Part shown: positions 19,984-56,900 of the stretch, one piece after another
Layout of the letters: every line of letters starts with the position of its first letter
Position numbering within the stretch: position 1 is the stretch's first letter
From: Escherichia coli
GTDB lineage: Bacteria > Pseudomonadota > Gammaproteobacteria > Enterobacterales > Enterobacteriaceae
Strand: one strand, 5' to 3'
Assembly (NCBI RefSeq): GCF_041886205.1
Contig: NZ_CP169029.1
Length of the DNA: 64,000 nt
Position numbers and translations under genes: made by a program
Notes under the pieces: model-generated
Told to the model about the DNA's origin: nothing
The model's database searches: none
The model's input: only the letters and a program-made list of their open reading frames with translations

Positions 19984-20094
19984 TAAAAAGAATTCAGAAT
20001 CAGGCCGGGGCGTATCGCGCTCCGTAAACACGGTCGTACATCCAGCCGGTAGCCTGGTTCCTTGCATTGAGTGATGTACGGAGTTTATAGAGCA

Positions 20095-36174: not shown

Positions 36175-36337
36175 AATATACAAAATATTTATTAATCTAA
36201 TTATGGTATTTATATTTGGAATGCATTAATAATTTAATAATCTCACGTTTTTTTAAACGACTAATTATTTGATTGTTATCAGCATTGTTCTCGAATAAAT
36301 ACGTGAATATTTATTTTTTCATTTTCGGGAACGCAAG
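36175..36337 (+). promoter_or_regulatory. AT-rich junction and putative promoter of the molybdoenzyme operon
   Basis: 163 bp that is strongly AT-rich by eye (runs such as aatatacaaaatatttattaatctaattatgg), sharply different from the flanking genes; immediately upstream of the first inserted gene. Confidence 0.4.
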
Positions 36338-38719
36338 ATGGATACGCCAGACGAAAAGGAACGCATTACATTTCCGCAAGTATCACGACGTAGTTTTTTA
36401 CAAGCGACTTCCGCGCTTATCACTTTGCCTTTTATTTCTTCTGCCGCAAAGGCGCAATCTTCAGATGCGTCGCCAGAAGTTACAGCTCCGGTGGCTGATA
36501 AAGTCGTGCCCACCTGTAGCACATTTGACTGTGGTGGTAAGTGCGATATTCGGGCGCATATGCGCGACGGTGTGGTGACGCAAATTACCACGCTTCCCGA
36601 TAACGAACTGGATCCACAAATGCCGATTATGCGCGCCTGTGTTCGTGGTCGCGGCTATCGTAAATTTGTTTATCATCCAGACCGCCTGAAATATCCGATG
36701 AAACGGGTCGGTAAACGGGGCGAGGGTAAATTTGAGCGTATTTCATGGGATGAGGCGACGACCTTAATTGCCGATAACCTGAAAAGGATCACGCAACAAT
36801 ATGGCCCGGCTTCACGTTATGTCCATGTCGGGACGGCTGTTTCTGGTGGAACATTTTCTGGTGATGCGATGGCACGTCGGCTGTTAAATTTAACCGGTGG
36901 TTATCTTGAATATTATCACTCAGTTAGTCTGGGTAATACTGCGGCCGCAACGCCTTACACGTATGGCGTGGCGGCCAGCGGTAACTCGATGGACACTCTT
37001 CTGGATACCAAACTGGTGATCCTCTGGGGGCATAACCCAACGGAAACCATCTTCGGTCACACCAATTACTTTTTTCAAAAAATGAAGCAAAACGGTACGC
37101 GTTTTATCGTGGTGGATCCGCGTTATTCCGACACTGTATCTTCGCTTGCCGATCAGTGGATCCCGCTGCTGCCGACCACGGACAATGCGTTGATGGACGC
37201 GATGATGTACGTGATTATCAGCGAAAATCTCCACGATAAGCAGTTTATCGAAACTTACACGCTCGGTTTTGATGAAGATTCCATGCCTGAGGGCGTACCG
37301 GCGAACGAGTCGCTGTATGCCTACCTGTTCGGCGCGAAAGATGGCGTGCGCAAAACGCCGGAATGGGCAGAAAAAATTACCCACGTTCCGGCACAAACTA
37401 TTCGTCAACTGGCACGCGATTACGCCACTACAAAACCTGCGGCGCTGATTCAGGGTTGGGGGCCACAGCGACATATTTGCGGCGAACGTACCGCCCGAGG
37501 TTCAACTTTACTGGCCTCGATTACCGGTAACGTCGGCATCAAAGGTGGCTGGGCGGCAGGTTATGGCGGTAGTTCTAATCGTAAATTCTGCGTTGGACCA
37601 GATATGCCAGAAAATCCGGTACAAGCGAAAATCTCGATTATGAACTGGATGCAGGCGGCGGATGATGCTTCTAAAGTTACGCCGCAAGATGGGCTTAAAG
37701 GTGTCGATAAACTCGACAGTAATATCCGCCTGCTGTTCTCACTGGCAGGTAATTATCTGGCGAACCAGAACCCGGACGTCCACCAGGCCGCGAAGCTCCT
37801 TGAAGACGAATCTAAAATAGAATTCATCGTACTCAGCGATCTGTTCATGACTCCGAGCGCGAAATATGCCGATGTGTTGCTGCCGGAAACCAGCTTTATG
37901 GAACGCTGGAATATCGGCGAAACATGGGGAACAGCGAGCTATCTTATTCTGTCAGAAAAACTGATTGAGCCGGAGTTTGAACGTCGCACGGATTATGACT
38001 GGTTGCGTGACGTGGCGAAAAAACTGGGTGTCGAAGCCGAGTTCAGTCAGGGACGTGATGAGAAGCAATGGATTGAGCATATCTGGGAGCAAACTCGTCT
38101 GGCGATGCCGGATGAAAATTTGCCGGACTTCGCGACCCTGCAAAAAACACGTCGCCATCTTTTCAAAAGTGCGCCGCACATCGCTTTCGAAGCAAATATT
38201 CGCGATCCGCAGAATAATCCTTTCCCGACGCCTTCCGGCAAAATTGAGATCTTCTCTAAGCGTCTTTTTGATATGCAAGATCCAGAAATTCCCGCGCTTT
38301 CGCACTATGTCCCTGCCTTTGAAGGGCCAGAAGATAAACTGACGGCGAAATACCCGTTGCAGCTCATCACCTGGAAAGGGAAAAACCGTGCTAATTCCAC
38401 CCAGTATGCTAACCCATGGCTGCAAGAAGTTCAGACGCAAAAACTCTGGCTGAATCCGCAAGATGCAAAACAGCGCGGGATTAGCGAAGGAGATAGCGTA
38501 AAAATTTATAACGATCGTGGTGTGAGCATTATCCCGGTGGAAATAACCCCCCGTATCATCCCTGGCGTAGTTGCTATGCAGGCGGGGGCATGGTGGCAAC
38601 CGGATGCACAAGGTATCGATCGCGGAGGCTGTGCCAATGTACTGAGTTCGACCCGCATTACGGCGCTGGCGAAAGGGAATTCGCATCAAACAATGCTGGT
38701 GGAGGTTGAGAAAGCATGA
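36338..38719 (+). CDS. Molybdopterin (bis-MGD) oxidoreductase catalytic subunit, DMSO-reductase family (DmsA/YnfE-like), Tat-exported
   Basis: 793 aa; twin-arginine motif SRRSFLQA with hydrophobic region and AxA site; N-terminal Cys cluster CSTFDCGGKC; molybdopterin oxidoreductase-like throughout. Confidence 0.85.
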   Translation: MDTPDEKERITFPQVSRRSFLQATSALITLPFISSAAKAQSSDASPEVTAPVADKVVPTCSTFDCGGKCDIRAHMRDGVVTQITTLPDNELDPQMPIMRACVRGRGYRKFVYHPDRLKYPMKRVGKRGEGKFERISWDEATTLIADNLKRITQQYGPASRYVHVGTAVSGGTFSGDAMARRLLNLTGGYLEYYHSVSLGNTAAATPYTYGVAASGNSMDTLLDTKLVILWGHNPTETIFGHTNYFFQKMKQNGTRFIVVDPRYSDTVSSLADQWIPLLPTTDNALMDAMMYVIISENLHDKQFIETYTLGFDEDSMPEGVPANESLYAYLFGAKDGVRKTPEWAEKITHVPAQTIRQLARDYATTKPAALIQGWGPQRHICGERTARGSTLLASITGNVGIKGGWAAGYGGSSNRKFCVGPDMPENPVQAKISIMNWMQAADDASKVTPQDGLKGVDKLDSNIRLLFSLAGNYLANQNPDVHQAAKLLEDESKIEFIVLSDLFMTPSAKYADVLLPETSFMERWNIGETWGTASYLILSEKLIEPEFERRTDYDWLRDVAKKLGVEAEFSQGRDEKQWIEHIWEQTRLAMPDENLPDFATLQKTRRHLFKSAPHIAFEANIRDPQNNPFPTPSGKIEIFSKRLFDMQDPEIPALSHYVPAFEGPEDKLTAKYPLQLITWKGKNRANSTQYANPWLQEVQTQKLWLNPQDAKQRGISEGDSVKIYNDRGVSIIPVEITPRIIPGVVAMQAGAWWQPDAQGIDRGGCANVLSSTRITALAKGNSHQTMLVEVEKA

Positions 38720-39345
38720 GCCAATTTAAAGAATTTGCATCTGTCAGCGACAAACAATTAGGGTTCTTCATTGACTCTTCGCGTTGTTCTGGCTGTAAAG
38801 CGTGTCAGGTGGCCTGTAAAGACAAAAATAACCTTGAGGTTGGGCGACGTTTTCGCCGCGTGTATGAAGTGAACGGCGGTGGCTTCATCGCCACTGGAGA
38901 GGGCGGTGTGAGTCATAATGTCTTTGCTTATACCCTTTCTATTTCCTGTAACCATTGCGCGGATCCGATCTGTATCAAAAATTGCCCGACGATGGCGATG
39001 CATAAGCGTCCCGGAGACGGTATTGTGCGCGTGAATACTGATAAGTGCGTCGGTTGCGGTTACTGCGCCTGGTCCTGTCCTTACGGCGCACCGCAAATGA
39101 ATGAGCAGACCGGGCAGATGTCGAAATGCGATTTCTGTATTGATCTGCAAGCTAAAGGAGAACAACCCATTTGCGTGGCAACGTGCCCGTTGGGGGCGAT
39201 TAAGTTCGGCCCTATTGATGAGTTGCGTGAAAAGTATGGCGATGTCAGTGATGTGAAAGGTTTACCTGATTCGTCGATTACGCAGCCAAATCTGGTGATT
39301 AAACCGCATCAGGGCGCGGAAAAGGAGGCGTCACATCATGCATGA
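38716..39345 (+). CDS. 4Fe-4S electron-transfer subunit (DmsB-like)
   Basis: 209 aa with several Cys motifs of ferredoxin type (CSGCKACQVACK, CNHCADPICIKNCP, CVGCGYCAWSCP, CDFC…CVATCP); ATGA overlap with the upstream gene. Confidence 0.85.
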   Translation: MSQFKEFASVSDKQLGFFIDSSRCSGCKACQVACKDKNNLEVGRRFRRVYEVNGGGFIATGEGGVSHNVFAYTLSISCNHCADPICIKNCPTMAMHKRPGDGIVRVNTDKCVGCGYCAWSCPYGAPQMNEQTGQMSKCDFCIDLQAKGEQPICVATCPLGAIKFGPIDELREKYGDVSDVKGLPDSSITQPNLVIKPHQGAEKEASHHA

Positions 39346-40159
39346 ATTACCGTTAATGGCTTTTACGCTGTTGTTACAGGCATCGGTCGGTATGACCTTG
39401 TGGCTGGCGTTTCTTCATCGTCATATTTTAATCACCTCCAGCGCCCGCCCGGTTATGCGGCCGCCATTACTGTTGGCTTTTTTGGCAGGTGCCGTAGGGT
39501 TACTGATTTCTACCTTACATCTGGGTTATCCACTTAATGCGATGCATGCGCTAAGCCACTTTTCCAGTTCATGGCTGAGTCGGGAAATTATCTTTGGTGC
39601 GCTGTATCTGGCGCTATTGGGTTTATCCACATTACTGGTCATGTTACGCAAAGGCGGCTGGCAACTCCTGCTTATGCTAGCGGCAGTGGTCGGGATTGTT
39701 GATGTTTTCTGCATGGCGCAAGTTTACATCCATACGTCGATTATCACCTGGCAGCATTACAACACGCTGATTATGTTCTTAGGTACAGTGGGAATTCTCG
39801 GTTCAGCGCTGGTAGCAGTGTTTCGTATTAGCGGAATTTTGCCGCAGATTGATGCCCTGCGTAATGGATGCGTGTTGGTGATCGCTTTCCTGGTTCTGTT
39901 GCGTTTGTTGGTTCAGCCGTTGTGGATAGGGGATTTAACGGCAAATGCGATGCAGATAGCCACATTGCCACATGCGCCATTAGCGATGCTGGGACAGTTA
40001 AAACCCATACTGACACTAAGCTGGGGAATTTCCGTCATTGGGATGATGTTCTTTGCTGTCGGTGGTTGTAAAAAGAATATCCCGGCGGCGTTATTCGGTA
40101 GCGTAATGCTAGTGGGGAGTGAAGTTATGCTGCGTTTTGTCTTTTTTAGTATCAGCTAA
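39338..40159 (+). CDS. Integral-membrane anchor subunit (DmsC-like)
   Basis: 273 aa, about 8 hydrophobic segments; overlaps the B-subunit stop by 8 nt. Confidence 0.75.
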   Translation: MHELPLMAFTLLLQASVGMTLWLAFLHRHILITSSARPVMRPPLLLAFLAGAVGLLISTLHLGYPLNAMHALSHFSSSWLSREIIFGALYLALLGLSTLLVMLRKGGWQLLLMLAAVVGIVDVFCMAQVYIHTSIITWQHYNTLIMFLGTVGILGSALVAVFRISGILPQIDALRNGCVLVIAFLVLLRLLVQPLWIGDLTANAMQIATLPHAPLAMLGQLKPILTLSWGISVIGMMFFAVGGCKKNIPAALFGSVMLVGSEVMLRFVFFSIS

Positions 40160-41013
40160 TGTTAAGTCATAACATAACGATTGGCGCGGAATGCGCGCGC
40201 CAACGCTTTCGTTTTGCAACATGTCATGCCTGTGTCGAGGCTTGCCCGGCACAGGCGCTAACGCTGACAGAAGAGGGCGTAGCGGTCGACGCGGAACAAT
40301 GTATTGAGTGTGCGGTTTGCCAGTTTATTTGCCCGCAAGAGGCTATTCGTGGCGTTAATTCCCCTTTACGTTATTTTCGCAATCACACCCTGGTCGCACC
40401 TTTCACCACTATTGCGCCGACGCTGGAAGAACTTTTGCTATGGCATAAAGAGCAGGGGATCACAGCGATCGCGATTGATCTGAGTCAGGCGAAGGCATGG
40501 GAGCGCGCATTATTGCTGTTAAACGAACGCTTACGGCAATATGGCGAGGAAGGCTGGTCTGTGGTATCTCCACATACCAGTGAGGTGAATGTTTCCCGGC
40601 GTCGTTTGTTCCATGTGCAGCGTGCGGATGTTCAGATGACACAAATACAGCCAGGATTACGTCGGTTACATTATTTTTGGCCCCAGATTAGTGATGCTCG
40701 CCCGATGATGGATCCTCAAAAGTGTCAGCTTTGCGGTGCATGCTGGCGGGCCTGCGGGCAACAGGTCTTTTCGCTTAACGAAGGCCATTTACAAATCAAT
40801 GATGCCTTGTGTACCGGATGCCAAAATTGTATTGCTGTTTGTTTTCATCAGGCAATGACCGTTGAATTGACGATTCTACCGGCAAAAATTGTGAATCTTC
40901 ATGCTAATCGCAAAGTCTGTAAAACCTGTCAAAAATCCTTTCTTACTTTTCAGCAAAATGCGCAAAATTGTCTTTATTGCCAACGTCATCGCTATGGGAT
41001 GAGAGCATCATAA
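40159..41013 (+). CDS. Ferredoxin-like iron-sulfur protein with C-terminal Cys-rich tail
   Basis: 284 aa; Cys motifs CIECAVCQFICP, CQLCGACWRACG, CTGCQNCIAVC, plus terminal CKTCQ…CLYCQ pairs; TAATG overlap with the membrane subunit. Confidence 0.65.
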   Translation: MLSHNITIGAECARQRFRFATCHACVEACPAQALTLTEEGVAVDAEQCIECAVCQFICPQEAIRGVNSPLRYFRNHTLVAPFTTIAPTLEELLLWHKEQGITAIAIDLSQAKAWERALLLLNERLRQYGEEGWSVVSPHTSEVNVSRRRLFHVQRADVQMTQIQPGLRRLHYFWPQISDARPMMDPQKCQLCGACWRACGQQVFSLNEGHLQINDALCTGCQNCIAVCFHQAMTVELTILPAKIVNLHANRKVCKTCQKSFLTFQQNAQNCLYCQRHRYGMRAS

Positions 41014-41068
41014 AAGTCGAGTTGTTGCTAAAACTCATTTTATTTTAAAAAAATGTTACCTTCATCAA

Positions 41069-41097
41069 TAGTCAACGGCCCTGTTGCTCATTATAAT
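41069..41097 (+). promoter_or_regulatory. Putative sigma70 promoter of ndk
   Basis: -35 tagtca, 17-bp spacer, perfect -10 tataat (41092-41097) about 55 nt upstream of the ndk ATG. Confidence 0.45.
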
Positions 41098-41153
41098 CCG
41101 CGCCATCTCGTACGCTGGTACAGACAACAACAGAATAATTTACAGAGGTAAAA

Positions 41154-41585
41154 ATGGCTATTGAACGTACTTTTTCCATCATCAAACCGAACGCGGTAGC
41201 AAAAAACGTCATTGGTAATATCTTTGCGCGCTTTGAAGCTGCGGGGTTCAAAATTGTCGGCACCAAAATGCTGCACCTGACCGTTGAACAGGCACGTGGC
41301 TTTTATGCTGAACACGATGGAAAACCGTTCTTTGATGGTCTGGTTGAATTCATGACCTCTGGCCCGATCGTGGTTTCCGTGCTGGAAGGTGAAAACGCCG
41401 TTCAGCGTCACCGCGATCTGCTGGGCGCGACCAATCCGGCAAACGCACTGGCCGGTACTCTGCGCGCTGATTACGCTGACAGCCTGACCGAAAACGGTAC
41501 CCACGGTTCTGACTCCGTCGAATCTGCCGCTCGCGAAATCGCTTATTTCTTCGGCGAAGGCGAAGTGTGCCCGCGCACCCGTTAA
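41154..41585 (+). CDS. ndk: Nucleoside diphosphate kinase
   Basis: 143 aa; NDK motifs including the active-site His region NGTHGSDS. Confidence 0.95.
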
Positions 41586-44213: not shown

Positions 44214-45332
44214 ATGCATAACCAGGCTCCAATTCAACGTAGAAAATCAACACGTATTTACGTTGGGAATGTGCCGATTGGCGATGGTGCTCCCATCGCC
44301 GTACAGTCCATGACCAATACGCGTACGACAGACGTCGAAGCAACGGTCAATCAAATCAAGGCGCTGGAACGCGTTGGCGCTGATATCGTCCGTGTCTCCG
44401 TACCGACGATGGACGCGGCAGAAGCGTTCAAACTCATCAAACAGCAGGTTAACGTGCCGCTGGTGGCTGACATCCACTTCGACTATCGCATTGCACTGAA
44501 AGTAGCGGAATACGGCGTCGATTGTCTGCGTATTAACCCTGGCAATATCGGTAATGAAGAGCGTATTCGCATGGTGGTTGACTGTGCGCGCGATAAAAAC
44601 ATTCCGATCCGTATTGGCGTTAACGCCGGATCGCTGGAAAAAGATCTGCAAGAAAAGTATGGCGAACCGACGCCGCAGGCGTTGCTGGAATCCGCCATGC
44701 GTCATGTTGATCATCTCGATCGCCTGAACTTCGATCAGTTCAAAGTCAGCGTGAAAGCGTCTGACGTCTTCCTCGCTGTTGAGTCTTATCGTTTGCTGGC
44801 AAAACAGATCGATCAGCCGTTGCATCTGGGGATCACCGAAGCCGGTGGCGCGCGCAGCGGGGCAGTAAAATCCGCCATTGGTTTAGGTCTGCTGCTGTCT
44901 GAAGGCATCGGCGACACGCTGCGCGTATCACTGGCGGCCGATCCGGTCGAAGAGATCAAAGTCGGTTTCGATATTTTGAAATCGCTTCGTATCCGTTCGC
45001 GAGGTATCAACTTCATCGCCTGTCCGACCTGTTCGCGTCAGGAGTTTGATGTTATCGGTACGGTTAACGCGCTGGAGCAACGCCTGGAAGATATCATCAC
45101 TCCGATGGACGTTTCGATTATCGGCTGCGTGGTGAATGGCCCAGGTGAGGCGCTGGTTTCTACACTCGGCGTCACCGGCGGCAACAAGAAAAGCGGCCTC
45201 TATGAAGATGGCGTGCGCAAAGACCGTCTGGACAACAACGATATGATCGACCAGCTGGAAGCACGCATTCGTGCGAAAGCCAGTCAGCTGGACGAAGCGC
45301 GTCGAATTGACGTTCAGCAGGTTGAAAAATAA
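44214..45332 (+). CDS. ispG: 4-hydroxy-3-methylbut-2-enyl diphosphate synthase IspG
   Basis: 372 aa; conserved C-terminal Cys ligands (CPTCSR…GCVVNGPGE). Confidence 0.95.
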
Positions 45333-45442
45333 TAACGTGATGGGAAGCGCCTCGCTTCCCGTGTATGATTGAACCCGCATGGCTCCCGAAACATTGAGGG
45401 AAGCGTTGAGGGTTCATTTTTATATTCAGAAAGAGAATAAAC

Positions 45443-50466: not shown

Positions 50467-50621
50467 CTTCTCTTATTAGTTAAATCATTAATACATGTGA
50501 GTAAAATTATTTAGATATATTTTTAGGAATATATTTAGTTTTTCTGACGTGCCTTCCTGAATGTTCTGGCATAGAATATTAGAGCTTATTCATCAAATTA
50601 TCATTGCCACAGGGAAAGTGC

Positions 50622-52796
50622 ATGCTGCGATGGAGTCGCTTTATTATGTTACTATTCATCTCTGCTGCAACTCCTGCGGCAGAGATAAATAGTAAGCAAA
50701 ACGAATCGTTACCTGATTTAGGCAGCCAGGCGGCTCAACAAGTAGAACAAACGGATAAGGGTAAATCGTTAAAAGAGCGTGGAGCCGATTACGTCATTGA
50801 TTCTGCTACGCAAGGGTTTGAAAACCTAACCCCCGAGGCGCTGGAATCTCAGGCCAGAAGCTATCTGCAAAGTCAAATCACCTCAACCGCACAATCTTAT
50901 ATTGAAGACACACTCTCTCCCTACGGTAAGGTCCGTTCGAATCTCTCTATTGGTCAGGGTGGCGATCTGGATGGTAGCTCCATCGATTATTTTGTTCCCT
51001 GGTATGATAATCAAACGACCGTTTATTTCAGTCAATTTTCTGCGCAACGAAAAGAGGATCGTACGATCGGGAATATCGGAATTGGAGTAAGACATAATTT
51101 CGATGAATGGCTTTTGGGTGGGAATATATTTTACGATTATGATTTCACCCGTGGGCATCGTCGTTTAGGTTTAGGGACAGAAGCCTGGACCAATTATTTA
51201 AAATTTTCTGGCAACTATTATCATCCGCTCTCTGACTGGAAAAACTCTGAGGATTTCGACTTTTATGAAGAGCGTCCGGCGCGCGGTTGGGATATTCGTG
51301 CTGAAGCCTGGTTACCTTCTTATCCACAACTGGGGGGCAAGATTGTCTTCGAGCAATATTACGGTGATGAAGTCGCCCTTTTTGGTACGGATAATTTAGA
51401 GAAAGATCCCTATGCGGTGACGCTAGGACTAAATTATCAACCGGTACCGTTACTGACAGTTGGAACGGATTATAAAGCGGGGACCGGAGATAACAGCGAT
51501 GTCAGCATTAATGCCACTCTTAATTATCAGTTCGGCGTTCCGCTAAAAGATCAACTCGACAGCGATAAAGTAAAAGCAGTCCACTCGTTGATGGGTAGCC
51601 GACAGGACTTTGTCGAGCGTAATAACTTTATCGTCCTGGAATATAAAGAGAAAGACCCTCTGGATGTGACGTTGTGGCTGAAAGCGGATGCGACCAACGA
51701 GCATCCAGAGTGCGTCATTAAGGACACTCCTGAAGCGGCGGTCGGTCTGGAAAAATGTAAGTGGACCATTAACGCACTGATCAATCACCACTACAAAATT
51801 GTCGCTGCGTCATGGCAGGCGAAAAACAATGCCGCCCGCACGCTGGTGATGCCGGTCATCAAAGAAAATACCATCACTGAAGGCAACAACAACCACTGGA
51901 ATCTGATACTGCCAGCCTGGCAGTACAGCTCTGACAAAGCTGAGCAGGAAAAACTCAATACCTGGCGGGTACGGCTGGCGCTGGAAGATGAAAAAGGTAA
52001 TCGGCAAAACTCCGGCCTGGTGGAAATCACTGTTCAGCAGGACCGTAAAATAGAGCTTATCGTCAATAACATTGCCGATGCGCCTGCCGAGAATAACCAC
52101 AGCCATGAAGCCAGCGCTCAGGCGGATGGCGTTGATGGTGTAGTCATGGACCTCGAGGTGACGGACAGTTTTGGCGATAACACGGACCGCAACGGTGATG
52201 CTCTGCCAGAAGATAATCTTGCACCGCAGCTCTACGACGCTCAGGACAAAAAAGTCACGCTAACCAATAAACCCTGCTCGACCGACAACCCCTGCGTGTT
52301 TATTGCCAAACAAGATAAAGAAAAGGGAACGGTAACCCTCTCCAGTACATTGCCAGGCGTTTTCCGCTGGAAAGCGAAAGCGGCTCCCTACGATGACAGT
52401 AACTATGTGGATGTCACGTTTATTGGATCTGATATCGGCGGGCTTAATGCTTTCATTTACCGGCTTGGGGTAGCGAAGCCAGTCAATTTGATCGGCAATG
52501 ATAAAGACCCCCTGCCGCTGGGCAACACGTACCGATTTGTGTTGTGGCGTGATGCCAACAAAGACGGCGTTTTTCAGCAGTCGGAAAAACTAACCGATGA
52601 AGAGATGACTCAGTACGACTACAAGTGGGAATTTACCGGCAAGAGCATCAATGGCGAAGTAGGTGCGCAGGCGAACACATCCAATGCAGACATTGTAATA
52701 CCGGCGACCAACCGTGAAGCGGCGCAATCCTATGGTGCAAAAGTGGAAGATGGCTTGCAGGGATACGGTTTACGCGTGCTGTACACCAAAAAATAA
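50622..52796 (+). CDS. sinH: Intimin/invasin-family inverse autotransporter (SinH-like)
   Basis: Signal peptide MLRWSRFIMLLFISAATPAA; intimin/invasin-like beta-domain motifs (GNIGIGVRH, YYHPLSDWK, GWDIRAEAWLPSYPQLGGK, EQYYGDEVALFG) followed by passenger domains. An alternative TTG at 50604 would give the 730-aa track ORF. Confidence 0.75.
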   Translation: MLRWSRFIMLLFISAATPAAEINSKQNESLPDLGSQAAQQVEQTDKGKSLKERGADYVIDSATQGFENLTPEALESQARSYLQSQITSTAQSYIEDTLSPYGKVRSNLSIGQGGDLDGSSIDYFVPWYDNQTTVYFSQFSAQRKEDRTIGNIGIGVRHNFDEWLLGGNIFYDYDFTRGHRRLGLGTEAWTNYLKFSGNYYHPLSDWKNSEDFDFYEERPARGWDIRAEAWLPSYPQLGGKIVFEQYYGDEVALFGTDNLEKDPYAVTLGLNYQPVPLLTVGTDYKAGTGDNSDVSINATLNYQFGVPLKDQLDSDKVKAVHSLMGSRQDFVERNNFIVLEYKEKDPLDVTLWLKADATNEHPECVIKDTPEAAVGLEKCKWTINALINHHYKIVAASWQAKNNAARTLVMPVIKENTITEGNNNHWNLILPAWQYSSDKAEQEKLNTWRVRLALEDEKGNRQNSGLVEITVQQDRKIELIVNNIADAPAENNHSHEASAQADGVDGVVMDLEVTDSFGDNTDRNGDALPEDNLAPQLYDAQDKKVTLTNKPCSTDNPCVFIAKQDKEKGTVTLSSTLPGVFRWKAKAAPYDDSNYVDVTFIGSDIGGLNAFIYRLGVAKPVNLIGNDKDPLPLGNTYRFVLWRDANKDGVFQQSEKLTDEEMTQYDYKWEFTGKSINGEVGAQANTSNADIVIPATNREAAQSYGAKVEDGLQGYGLRVLYTKK

Positions 52797-52850
52797 GATT
52801 GGCGTAAGGCCAGTCGGCCAGTCGCTGAAGATTCATTAAGGAGAGACTCA

Positions 52851-53828
52851 ATGAAGCAGGACAAAAGACGCGGTCTGACCCGGATCGCATTGGCGCTGGC
52901 ACTGGCGGGTTACTGCGTGACGCCCCTTGCGCTGGCGGAAGACAGCGCGTGGATCGAGAGCGGCGAGACCAATATTTTCCAGGGGACTATTCCGTGGCTC
53001 TATTCGGAAGGAGGAAATGCTACGACAGATGCCGACCATGTAACGTTGACTTCTGATCTAAAAGGCGCTCGCCCGCAAGGCAGTGAAACGGACAAGCGTC
53101 TTTACTCGGGTGATAAACTAACCGTAAGCTGGGAGATTGGCGATACTGAAGGCGACGTCGATCTTGGTACGGCGGGTAAAGATGCAAAAACCATCGATAC
53201 CATCCGCTGGATGAGCTACAAGGACGCCCAGGGGGGCGATCCAAAAGAGCTGGCAACGAAGGTGACCACTTACACCCTTACCGATGCCGACCGTGGACGC
53301 TATATCGGTATTGAAATTACCCCAACCACCCAGACGGGTACGCCATACGTTGGGACTGCGCTGCATCTTTATGATGTTTCAAATGCTAACGGCGGGGGAA
53401 GCGATGAAGATAACGTTGATCCAGGACCGGTAGTTAACCAGAACCTGAAAGTCGCCATCTTTGTTAAAGACACTACGACCAACCTTATTAACGGCAATAC
53501 GCCAATCCAGTTGGGCAAAACGTACGTCGCCAAACTGTACTCGGATGAGAACAAAAACGGTCGGTATGACGCGGGTACTGACGTTGATGTTACCACCAAT
53601 TATGACTACCGTTGGGTACTCTCTGGCAGCAGCCAACAGCTCAGCACCTCGGGTGGTATCGTTAACTCAAGCTTCGATAATCAAAACCTGGTCATCCCTG
53701 CGACCAACGACGAAGCCAGAACCAACCTTAACGGCCCTGCTCGTGATGGCAAAGAGGCTCTTGCGATCCCGACCAACGGCGATGGGGTTCAGGGTTACAA
53801 ACTGCAAATTATCTACAAACACAAATAA
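52851..53828 (+). CDS. Secreted SinI-like protein with a C-terminal module shared with the SinH-like protein
   Basis: 325 aa; AAGGAG RBS; signal peptide (ALALAGYCVTPLALA); C-terminal ~110 aa align by eye with the SinH-like C-terminus (YDYKW/YDYRW, IPATN-EA, QGYGL/QGYKL). Confidence 0.75.
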   Translation: MKQDKRRGLTRIALALALAGYCVTPLALAEDSAWIESGETNIFQGTIPWLYSEGGNATTDADHVTLTSDLKGARPQGSETDKRLYSGDKLTVSWEIGDTEGDVDLGTAGKDAKTIDTIRWMSYKDAQGGDPKELATKVTTYTLTDADRGRYIGIEITPTTQTGTPYVGTALHLYDVSNANGGGSDEDNVDPGPVVNQNLKVAIFVKDTTTNLINGNTPIQLGKTYVAKLYSDENKNGRYDAGTDVDVTTNYDYRWVLSGSSQQLSTSGGIVNSSFDNQNLVIPATNDEARTNLNGPARDGKEALAIPTNGDGVQGYKLQIIYKHK

Positions 53829-53839
53829 CACTTGCTCAA

Positions 53840-53868
53840 CAGCATTCCCGCGTGGGAATGCTGTTTCC
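53840..53868 (+). terminator. Putative intrinsic terminator after the sinI-like gene
   Basis: cagcattccc-gcgt-gggaatgctg hairpin followed by tttcc. Confidence 0.45.
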
Positions 53869-53948
53869 GCATATTTTGCTTAATTCAGGATTAAGCAAAA
53901 TATGTTGATGCGGTAACCGTTCGTTAAATAACTGGTGGAGTTCTTTTC

Positions 53949-56900
53949 ATGTCCCAGCCCCTGAAACCCGGCACTTTTTATGTTCTGCTTGTATTGCTGC
54001 TAACCGCAATGCTGCCGGGATGGTCATGGGCGGGCTCGTCATGGCAAGACTCATCCGATACGGCGGGAGAATTTAACGGTACCGTCCCCAATGCCGACAG
54101 CGCCAGTATGCCGGTTTATCAGGGCAGTATTTGGCTTGATCCTGCAAAGACCCATGATGTTTCGTTTTCCGCTAAACCCAATGAATTTAGCGTTAATCTG
54201 GATGTGTCGAAGCTGATTGTGACGAACCCGCAGGACCTGGAAGGGGATGTGTTTACCAACCCCCGTTGGGAAAACCAAACGCCGCCAGCGGTCTCTTTAG
54301 TCTGGGCGGATGCGGCGACACCGGAAACCCCACTTAATCCTCAGCCAGTGGCTGGGCGTTCCTTTTGTGCGCAAGGGCTTGCTGGGCGTTCGCTGGTTGT
54401 CTGGCCGCAGCCAGACCCACAGCAGACCATGCCGCAACTTTATCTACGCACCTCGACAGGTTATCCCTATGAAAGTCTTCTGACGCTTGTCGATAAAAAA
54501 GTGACGTTAAATATTGCACCGGCCCAGGGCGACTTAATTTCTGTCAGTGCGGCCGGTTATGACGATACCGTGGGCGGGGCGAAAACTACCGTTGGCGGCA
54601 ATATCACGTTGACCGTTACCACCAAAGACTGCAGCGGCAACGTTGCAGGAAATATTCCTTTTATTATCAAACGCAAAGATGCTGAAAACCGACAGGGTGA
54701 GGTCAACAATGCTTCGCCGGTTGTTCTGGACAAAACTGAACTGACCACTATCGCGACCGAATATCACGGCACCACGGATGCGAACGGCGTTGCGACGATC
54801 ACGGTCACGCAACCCAACGGCCCTGGTGTAAAAACGCCGCTGGTAGCCAGTCTTTCAGGTATTGGTCAAACCAGTGAAACGGCAGTGATCTTTACCGTCC
54901 TTACCAGCCCGGATGTCCCTCAGGCCACGATGTGGGGCCATATGCCCGATACGCTAAAGGCCCATGATTATACGTTCAGTCGGCCAAAATTGGCGGCAGA
55001 AGTCGATAACGAAAATGGTACCGTTAACGATCACAATGAAACCTGGTCTACCTTCACCTGGAGCGGGGCGGATAAACATTGCGACATTTTGCCCGGTATG
55101 CGCCAGTTTGGCGCGTTGGCAACGGTGGTGCCCACGACAGTTCAGGATCTCGTTGGTTGGCCGATACAGGGTAACTACTACTGGTCATCACTGGCGGGGA
55201 TGACCGGACAGCACCATGCGGCGGATGTTTCCAACCGTAGCGAAGCGCAAAAACCGGACGATACGACGTTTATTGTCAGTTGTGTCGATAAAGAAGCTCC
55301 TGACGTTGAACCGAAACTGGTGCTAACACCGGGAAGCTATGATTCGACGTTAAAGGCGATGAAAGTAAAGGTGGGGGAAGAAGCGTCTCTGCGTGTAACC
55401 ATCACCGATAATAAAAACAATAATCAACCGCTGGCGTATTACTACTTTTCGTTACATCTGGATGACGGCATCAACCGTAAAAATCCATCGGATGCGGCAT
55501 GGGAAGCGCATCCGGTGCAGATAGCGGGTGGCAGCAATGTCCATCAGGTTGACGCGCATACCTATGAAGGCATTACGGATGTAAATGGTCAGGCATCACT
55601 GACGCTAACGCAACCGGGCGGCGCGGGCGTGAAAACACACATTACTGCGAAAATGCGCAGCGACTTCACCACGTCGGATGAGAAAGACGTGATTTTTACA
55701 GTCATTACCAGCCCCGATACTGACAAAGCCCGGATGTGGGGGCATATGCAGGGTATTATTGATTCTAATAATATCTTTAAACGTCCACGGCTGGCAGATG
55801 AAACCGACCATGAACTCGGTTCAGTGCGGGAGAACAACGAAGACTGGGCGCTGTTCGACCAAAATAGCAGCATGCAGGCTGAATGCGGTGTAGGTCATAT
55901 TCCGAGCCAGAATCAATTACAGGGTCTGTTCACGGCGCATCCTGGCAATGCGATTGGCACCGAATATGGCTGGCCGACGGCGCAAAAAGATTACCTTAGT
56001 GCGGTACAACAAGAGCCACACTCCTCCGTGAACCTGGGCACAGGTAACATCGACACCTATTCAGGCTTTAAGCAGAACTATCTCTCCTGTTCCGGTAATG
56101 AGATGGTTGCTCAGATTACCGCAACGACCGATCATGACGTTTCCGTGGGCAGCAGGGCGCAGGCTAAAGTTGGAGAAACCGTCACCATGACGGTGCATAC
56201 CTTCAATGCACTGAATAATGCGCCCGTGCCGTTTACCGCCTTCAGCATCACAAAGGAGATGGGTAAAAACCGTCAGGGGCAGACTACCGGATATACCGAT
56301 CCGACGAGTGGCGCAATTGAGATGAATGGCACGCTCTACGGAACATCCCAGGCCTCGGTGGTTTATTCCGGGACTACGGATGCACAGGGCTACGCAACGG
56401 TGGAGATTGAACAACCCCAGGGCGTGGGCTTAATTACGCCGCTAAATATTGCGCCTGTGAACTCCTATATTCCCAATACAGTAAATTACAACGTGATTTT
56501 CACCACGCCTACCAGCCCGGATGTGGTGGCGGCGCAGATGTGGGGGCATATGGATGAGACTATTACAGTCGATTCTTTAACCTTCACCCGGCCTAAACTG
56601 GCAGCGGAAGTTTCCAGCCCGGATGCGACATTGACAGAAAATAATGAAGTCTGGGCACGTGTGAGTCAGGCGAATACGTCCAGTATAAGTAAAGGTGGCT
56701 GTGGAGCGAATATGCTGCCGCGTCGATCCCAGCTTAGCGCGCTCTATGAGGCTAATAACGGTAATGCTGTACAAACAGTACACGGCTGGCCAACCCTGCG
56801 TGAGCCGTACTGGAGTAGTTCCCCAGCGGATAAAGTTCCTCATTTTTACACCATTGCACTCAATGATGGCGCACAGGCTATTGGCGGTAGCAACGCGGTT

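Follow-up and report, generated by a model that had tools for sequence, protein, structure and literature searches.

The window analysed here, a 64,000-nt stretch of Escherichia coli DNA whose numbering is used throughout, carries between pbpC and ndk an operon of four genes, referred to as A, B, C and D in 5' to 3' order, whose products belong with the dimethyl sulfoxide (DMSO) reductase family. From sequence comparison we think the chances somewhat better than even that this locus is a third DmsABC-type respiratory reductase of the Enterobacteriaceae, the counterpart of Salmonella STM2530-2527, which has been vertically inherited at pbpC-ndk and deleted in most E. coli. The operon itself is already known, being annotated in RefSeq and having been studied genetically in Salmonella. 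In the list of open reading frames (ORFs), the interval between pbpC (33862-36174, the left flank, also defined by flank comparison) and ndk (41154-41585, the right flank) is filled by four intact ORFs, on the plus strand as are both flanking genes. A (36338-38719) encodes a molybdopterin catalytic subunit of 793 amino acids (aa), B (38716-39345) a four-cluster iron-sulfur subunit of 209 aa, C (39338-40159) a DmsC-family membrane anchor of 273 aa, and D (40159-41013) a 20-Cys poly-ferredoxin of 284 aa. The ORFs and their NCBIfam and Pfam families agree with the four-gene operon of this family described in the initial annotation, and the overlaps of 4 nt between A and B, 8 nt between B and C, and 1 nt between C and D (TAATG) match the close coupling from which it had proposed a single compact transcription unit. 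The operon region of the window agrees with E. coli strain 6EVA at every position (100% identity), and all four genes are annotated in RefSeq for that strain.

The history of the locus is best seen in other genera. The order yfhM-pbpC-A-B-C-D-ndk-rlmN-rodZ was found in Citrobacter freundii, and likewise in Salmonella enterica subsp. arizonae and diarizonae, Enterobacter, Lelliottia, Huaxiibacter and Pseudocitrobacter. Across these six genera A is 82-89% and B 86-90% identical to the window's proteins, pbpC 79-86% and rodZ 75-81%, while C (50-62%) and D (39-53%) are a fast-evolving pair. The GC content of the operon is 0.48-0.505 against 0.523 for the whole window, and GC at third codon positions (GC3) is ordinary. 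The four genes fill the segment 36175-41021, where the ORF list has no mobility genes; boundary or flanking repeats were sought as signs of insertion and only short chance matches in AT-rich sequence appeared, and there is no integrase or tRNA gene at the locus. The occupation of the same site in six other genera, a divergence of A and B close to that of the flanks, the ordinary GC, and the lack of mobility genes and repeats argue for an ancestral state and not an insertion. The description of the operon as inserted and horizontally acquired is thus not upheld; sequence comparison indicates that the operon is ancestral at pbpC-ndk and that K-12 is the derived, deleted state. This corrects the evolutionary direction, in that the adjacency of pbpC and ndk in K-12 would be a deletion scar and not the ancestral arrangement. 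The operon has also been seen in other surroundings: on a metagenomic enterobacterial contig (L005) A-B-C-D lie between a phosphotransferase system (PTS)/GntR cluster and cytochrome bd and ttr genes, not between pbpC and ndk, and the operon flanks fetched from Enterobacillus (L015) and Chimaeribacter (L018) gave no pbpC or ndk match.

Within E. coli the operon is present in 379 of 5,426 complete genomes, invariably at this site and on the chromosome, with 97.8-100% identity, and its carriers are O157:H7, O55:H7 and scattered others. In the remaining genomes, so that the operon is absent from 93% of those that are complete, pbpC and ndk are adjacent, and the flank matches cover an identical 370 bp in all 22 operon-free genomes sampled. 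The initial statement that these genes are neighbours in K-12 is borne out by a J53-derived strain (L002) with an intergenic region of 148 bp, and comparison with K-12 shows the operon to be missing there, 16 bp (tctgttttgtccctga) standing in place of the 4,847 bp from 36175 to 41021; the sequence shared with K-12 picks up again at 41022 (TTGTTGCTAAAACTC). On either side of the operon the window has about 99% identity with K-12, with no sign of a separate haplotype. As a detail of the left flank, the last eight codons of pbpC (36151-36174) read ASVHFSFQ* in operon-bearing alleles and ATVKFVMQ* in operon-less ones; the operon-bearing ending is similar to that of Citrobacter, and the rest of the window's pbpC is about 99% identical to K-12. 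In E. coli ZF8-1 (L028, NZ_CP178597.1, 2631-3805) an IS1A element lies at the site with stubs of A (108 nt) and D (315 nt) at its sides, which is an independent IS1-linked deletion of the operon. Where it is retained, the operon looks functional from the low ratios of non-synonymous to synonymous substitution (dN/dS) between the window and O157, which are 0.066 for A, 0.107 for B and 0.16 for C. A putative anaerobic reductase missing from most other E. coli is therefore retained by O157:H7 and O55:H7, and it is a candidate gut niche factor.

The assignment to the DmsABC type is drawn from the first three subunits. A scores 1130.1 bits on TIGR02166, the model of the DmsA/YnfE subfamily (cut-off 777.7), and falls far below the cut-offs of the specific models for DmsA (NF011566, 707 of 1600 bits), YnfE (NF041885, 669 of 1675) and YnfF (NF041884, 692 of 1650). 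It begins with a twin-arginine translocation (Tat) signal, in which S-R-R-S-F-L (residues 16-21) precedes a hydrophobic stretch and A-K-A, with cleavage predicted after residue 39. The FS0 motif, C60-X4-C65-X3-C69…C101 (CSTFDCGGKC…RAC), has a C-X4-C-X3-C spacing that is invariant in the A clade from E. coli to Paraferrimonas (56% identity), whereas DmsA has C-X3-C-X3-C. B scores 268 bits on TIGR02951 (DmsB), above the cut-off of 214.1, and has 16 Cys in four groups. C matches Pfam DmsC over residues 1-270 (83.5 bits, 2.2e-23) and no NCBIfam model; it has eight predicted transmembrane (TM) helices, and the distribution of lysine and arginine predicts that both termini are outside. Anchors of the DmsC type are haem-free. 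Carrying over the pathway established for DmsABC, A would receive a [4Fe-4S] cluster and molybdenum bis(molybdopterin guanine dinucleotide), with a serine ligand, in the cytoplasm; B would bind A, and the A-B pair would be exported by Tat through the SRRSFL signal. By homology, C would then anchor A-B and oxidise menaquinol.

The 163 bp upstream of A (36175-36337, plus strand) are indeed AT-rich as initially described, with a measured GC of 22.1%. An alignment of the pbpC-A spacer from eight sequences (the window, O157 and six other taxa) is highly divergent except in two elements, a TTGAT-N4-xTCA box and a GAxAAT hexamer. The core of the FNR-type box, TTGAT…TCA, is invariant in all eight; the box of the window, TTGATtgttATCAg (36269-36282, plus strand, from the consensus scan and the spacer alignment), agrees with TTGAT-N4-ATCAA at nine of ten positions, and that of Salmonella is perfect (TTGATaaatATCAA). 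A candidate -10 hexamer, placed from the spacer alignment, is GAATAT in the window (36305-36310, plus strand) and GAGAAT or GAAAAT in other genera. The centres of box and hexamer are 32 bp apart, from which we infer the geometry of a class II (-41.5) FNR promoter. Such a promoter would turn the operon on anaerobically. The case for FNR rests only on a phylogenetic footprint, that is, on position and conservation and not on enrichment. That AT-richness is kept across genera points to a regulatory region and not to recently acquired DNA, and with its conserved box and -10 element the leader appears to fit an anaerobic class II promoter better than the H-NS-silenced foreign DNA that had been suggested for it. 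At the other end, no terminator-like site was found in the D-ndk spacer (41014-41153, plus strand), and its best promoter-like site (41069-41097, 10 of 12 matches) is inside the part shared with K-12, so that operon transcripts may run on into ndk. Matches in the promoter and terminator scans were no more numerous than in shuffled sequence, and a comparison with PHROGs gave nothing informative.

As had been observed initially, the cluster has no chaperone gene: none of the four operon proteins matches the TorD/DmsD family (PF02613), and the D family compared with DmsD by profile gives a probability of 1%. The weight that had been placed on this absence is not justified, since dmsD is annotated elsewhere in the matching strain 6EVA, after ynfH, the leader of A shares a motif with its relatives in E. 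coli, and related operons carry both D and TorD. The hydrophobic region of the leader ends LITLPFISS, similar to ALTLPFS in DmsA, and the LPF motif is common to the leaders of DmsA, YnfE and YnfF. Most simply, the enterobacterial operon would depend on DmsD in trans, and the Tat proofreading chaperone would probably be DmsD supplied from the ynf operon. Elsewhere the genes are found in the orders A-B-C-D-TorD (L023) and A-B-D-TorD (Paraferrimonas), as D, a radical S-adenosylmethionine (radical-SAM) gene, TorD, an 861-aa A, B and C, and as TorD, an 859-aa A, B, C and D in Gallibacterium and Vibrio porteresiae. That D might substitute for TorD was considered and ruled out by this co-occurrence of the two genes in other taxa.

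The fourth protein is, as initially proposed, a different kind of iron-sulfur protein, with two 4Fe-4S dicluster domains in its 284 aa. A NapF-like dicluster domain (residues 3-65) is followed by an alpha/beta middle part (66-182) without a match, a second dicluster domain (183-233) and a CxxC…CxxC tail (254-274), so that in Pfam about 115 residues without assignment separate the two dicluster domains. A profile search of 1.84 billion cluster representatives returned about 76 with E <1e-30, most of them 281-311 aa long and matched over their full length. All 20 Cys of D are invariant in 62 diverse homologues, forming four tetra-Cys groups and the C-terminal CxxC…CxxC pair, with room for as many as four [4Fe-4S] clusters and a Cys4 site. 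With Foldseek, AFDB50 yielded full-length relatives from many Enterobacterales, from Bacillaceae and, among the Pasteurellaceae, from Gallibacterium, none with a name more specific than 'ferredoxin' or '4Fe-4S binding protein', and the family as a whole is distributed over Enterobacterales, Vibrionales, Pasteurellales, Alteromonadales and Bacillaceae. The UniProt entry for the O157:H7 protein (Q8XAA2) has only 192 aa against 284 in the full-length RefSeq ORF.

Residues 3-65 of D align with residues 94-158 of E. coli NapF at a probability of 97% in profile comparison, including the unusual IGxxC-x9-CxxCxxxC arrangement. The similarity to NapF does not extend to full length, and the NapF family TIGR00402 is absent from the 25 best NCBIfam matches of D. 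An alignment of the C-terminal half of D with the N-terminal half of NapF was also tried and gave nothing beyond the generic cluster motif. Neither a signal peptide nor a hydrophobic segment is present in D (maximum hydropathy 1.42). The protein does have an internal twin-arginine-like motif, S-R-R-x-[LFW]-[LF] in the family alignment and SRRRLF in the window (residues 146-151, codons 40594-40611, plus strand), in which 60 of 62 homologues have R or K at position 147 and 60 of 62 have R at position 148. This motif is in a loop of low predicted local distance difference test (pLDDT) score with no hydrophobic segment after it. The N-terminus of E. coli NapF reads SRRGIL, and the two SRR motifs do not align. 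By sequence the internal motif could mimic a Tat signal.

In all seven contexts long enough to show them, the D-family gene adjoins a gene for a molybdopterin A subunit and one for a Fer4_11 B subunit, and in five of these seven a TorD gene is also present; in an eighth, on a short contig, the neighbours of D are genes for DmsC and TatA, one on each side. A second and more distant type of A, of 859-861 aa and about 30% identical to that of the window, is likewise encoded next to D-family genes (L020, L026, L027). Operons of this type carry TorD, one of them also a radical-SAM gene, and AraC-type regulators adjoin two.

NapF is described in a review as a cytoplasmic protein that binds NapA, that in Rhodobacter is needed for the iron-sulfur cluster of NapA, and that in Wolinella attaches to the membrane through NapH (PMC10609526). 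The most likely role of D, to which we would give roughly an even chance, is that of a cytoplasmic maturation or holding factor for pre-A. D would then stay in the cytoplasm and act before export as a NapF-like factor for the iron-sulfur cluster of A. It may also dock on C, which would explain both the coupling of C with D and the fast evolution of the two. A broader and more tentative proposal, which we hold to be rather improbable at present, is that D represents an undescribed but widespread class of accessory factors for Tat-exported DmsA-type molybdoenzymes, uniting a NapF-like cluster domain, a middle domain without a known fold relative and the internal SRR mimic, which could engage TatBC or a TorD-type chaperone to time export, and that the enzyme may reduce a gut-relevant acceptor other than DMSO. 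The D family offers a concrete target for studying how Tat-exported molybdoenzymes acquire their iron-sulfur clusters.

Several points weigh against this account of the operon and of D. In the AFDB, K8A6I6 of Cronobacter condimenti (560 aa) has the appearance of a fusion of C and D; taken together with the predicted outside location of the C terminus of C, such a fusion would put D in the periplasm, though the entry may be a sequencing error. The number of clusters in D is far above what one would expect a chaperone to require, and the canonical dmsABC and ynfEFGH products of E. coli mature without D. The dN/dS of D between the window and O157 is 0.63. The FNR-consensus matches in the window number 4 against 2.3 expected, which is not significant, and the use of DmsD is inferred from the similarity of leader peptides. 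The equation with STM2530-2527, lastly, is an apparent one, drawn from the four-gene architecture, the 43% identity to DmsA and the loci of other Salmonella subspecies.

The alternative that survives best is that D is a true fourth redox subunit, its four or five clusters forming an additional electron wire, either on the cytoplasmic face of C or exported by Tat together with A-B and accepting electrons in the periplasm. We regard this as possible, if clearly less likely than a role in maturation. The 20 invariant Cys, with capacity for up to four [4Fe-4S] clusters and a Cys4 site, would suit an electron carrier, and the best PDB sequence matches of D are electron-wire polyferredoxins such as MvhB and FwdF. 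In Paraferrimonas A-B-D-TorD occur without C, as though D had taken the place of the anchor, and the translational coupling and fast evolution of C and D, together with the one fusion entry in the databases, would also be in keeping with a subunit role. D has no signal peptide, however, and from what is established for DmsABC a haem-free anchor of the DmsC type would have no means of conducting electrons through the membrane to a D in the cytoplasm or from it. The NapF-like N-terminal domain and the occurrence of D with or next to TorD-type genes in five of the eight contexts are also unfavourable to a redox subunit, and canonical DmsABC works without one.

A second alternative concerns the substrate and would make the operon a redundant third DMSO or S-oxide reductase whose substrates would be those of DmsABC and YnfEFGH. 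The score of A exceeds the cut-off of the dmsA_ynfE subfamily model, and A shares with these enzymes the A-B-C subunit plan and the serine ligand, and DmsABC is established to have a broad range of S-oxide and N-oxide substrates. The ligand, for which an alignment had been proposed as a check, is Ser197, which aligns with residue 189 of the Rhodobacter capsulatus DMSO reductase precursor (Ser147 in mature numbering) and with the serine of DmsA. In spite of this, the identity of A is only 43% with DmsA and with YnfF and 40% with YnfE, whereas those three are 65-71% identical to one another. The initial view that the substrate cannot be read from the sequence stands. Val163 of A (36824-36826) occupies the position of a tyrosine in DmsA, YnfE and YnfF that aligns with Rhodobacter Tyr114, and this position is V, T, N or E throughout the A clade. 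The 'TRSWPP' loop of DmsA is also absent from A, an absence conserved through the clade to Paraferrimonas, and the spacing of FS0 differs. Work on Rhodobacter DorA and on TorA has shown that a tyrosine of the Tyr114 type favours S-oxide reduction. The replacement of this residue suggests that the substrate of the operon is probably not DMSO, and it fits the report that Salmonella STM2530 failed to restore DMSO-dependent anaerobic growth while STM0964 and STM4305 did so (bioRxiv 10.1101/2022.11.29.517730). Redundancy with the two known reductases seems to us unlikely.

Returning to ancestry, the operon might instead be a horizontally acquired island, inserted at pbpC-ndk in the lineage of this strain and silenced by H-NS through its AT-rich leader. 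Its absence from 93% of complete E. coli genomes, the 22% GC of the leader and the strong divergence of C and D between genera could all be read in this way, and acquisition after the split of Salmonella and Escherichia was proposed in the Salmonella preprint (bioRxiv 10.1101/2022.11.29.517730). The pbpC-ndk synteny argues against such an acquisition, as the same site is occupied in six other genera with a divergence of A and B close to that of the flanks; neither GC nor GC3 stands out, the locus is free of integrase and tRNA genes and of flanking direct repeats, the AT-rich leader with its conserved FNR box and -10 is common to all the genera, and flanks 99% identical to K-12 reveal no distinct haplotype. 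An island is very improbable and is largely refuted by synteny. In Pseudocitrobacter faecalis DSM 27453 (L011, 4166-6537) A is split, with residues 1-358 in frame 2 and 332-792 in frame 1, which is either a pseudogene or a sequencing error. The least probable reading of all, that the operon is a decaying remnant without present function in E. coli, could draw on its loss from most E. coli, the IS1-linked deletion in ZF8-1, the split A of P. faecalis, the frameshifts reported in S. Typhi and S. Paratyphi A (bioRxiv 10.1101/2022.11.29.517730) and the dN/dS of D, and is opposed by four full-length ORFs, the low dN/dS of A and B, and the conservation of all cofactor ligands and promoter elements.

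Other features of the window were also recorded. From 50604 to 62000 there are genes for SinH (an intimin-like inverse autotransporter of 730 aa), SinI (325 aa) and a RatA-like repeat adhesin of 2,683 aa, which we take to be a further accessory block absent from K-12. Above the Rfam gathering score were the small RNA (sRNA) ryfA (27350-27654, minus strand), the iscRS stability element (19984-20093, plus strand) and the sRNA sroE (45332-45423, plus strand), which are ordinary for this chromosomal region.

Comparison with known systems is informative for both the accessory protein and the operon as a whole. The dmsEFABGH and dmsA2B2G2H2 clusters of Shewanella combine A and B with two accessory genes, as does the A-B-D-TorD arrangement of Paraferrimonas, and deletion of dmsG or dmsH impairs the reduction of DMSO and iodate (PMC11302344). 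The Shewanella enzyme differs in being extracellular and fed by DmsE and DmsF. The dmsABCDE operon of Haemophilus influenzae includes a NapF-like gene, dmsE (PMC8340005), and, compared by description only, its accessory iron-sulfur protein embodies the same idea as D; it differs in having DmsD inside the operon and another gene order, and the D-family member of Gallibacterium, also of the Pasteurellaceae, belongs to an operon different from H. influenzae dms. That D is linked by sequence to DmsG/DmsH of Shewanella or to DmsE of H. influenzae is a lead only: a word-based search with the Paraferrimonas homologue matched only itself, and the profile search returned no Shewanella or Haemophilus names. 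E. coli NapF resembles D in the C-x9-C-x2-C-x3-C motif, the lack of an export signal and the possession of an S-R-R-x-hydrophobic-hydrophobic motif. The two differ in length (164 aa against 284), in the Cys4 tail, which only D has, and in the position of the SRR motif, N-terminal in NapF and internal in D.

The likeness to DmsABC and to YnfEFGH-DmsD of E. coli is close in overall plan, comprising a Tat-exported A with FS0, a serine ligand and the LPF leader motif, a 16-Cys B that is 58% identical, an eight-TM anchor of the DmsC type and probable FNR dependence. The window operon differs in its extra D gene and in having no chaperone gene in the cluster, and its A differs from DmsA, YnfE and YnfF in the C-X4-C-X3-C form of FS0, the Val in place of Tyr and the deletion of one loop. 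The nearest counterpart would be in Salmonella, where STM2530, with 43% identity to E. coli DmsA, belongs to an operon of four genes, STM2530-2527, that has been called a 'third dmsABC operon', deleted and tested (bioRxiv 10.1101/2022.11.29.517730). Like the operon of the window, STM2530-STM2527 of Salmonella Typhimurium has four genes including an extra fourth, and the A of each is 43% identical to DmsA. In Salmonella arizonae and diarizonae the operon is between pbpC and ndk with an A that is 84% identical to that of the window; the Salmonella operon differs in D, only about 40% identical, and in C, about 50%. If the two are indeed counterparts, the 'third DMSO reductase' of Salmonella would be older than the split between Salmonella and Escherichia.

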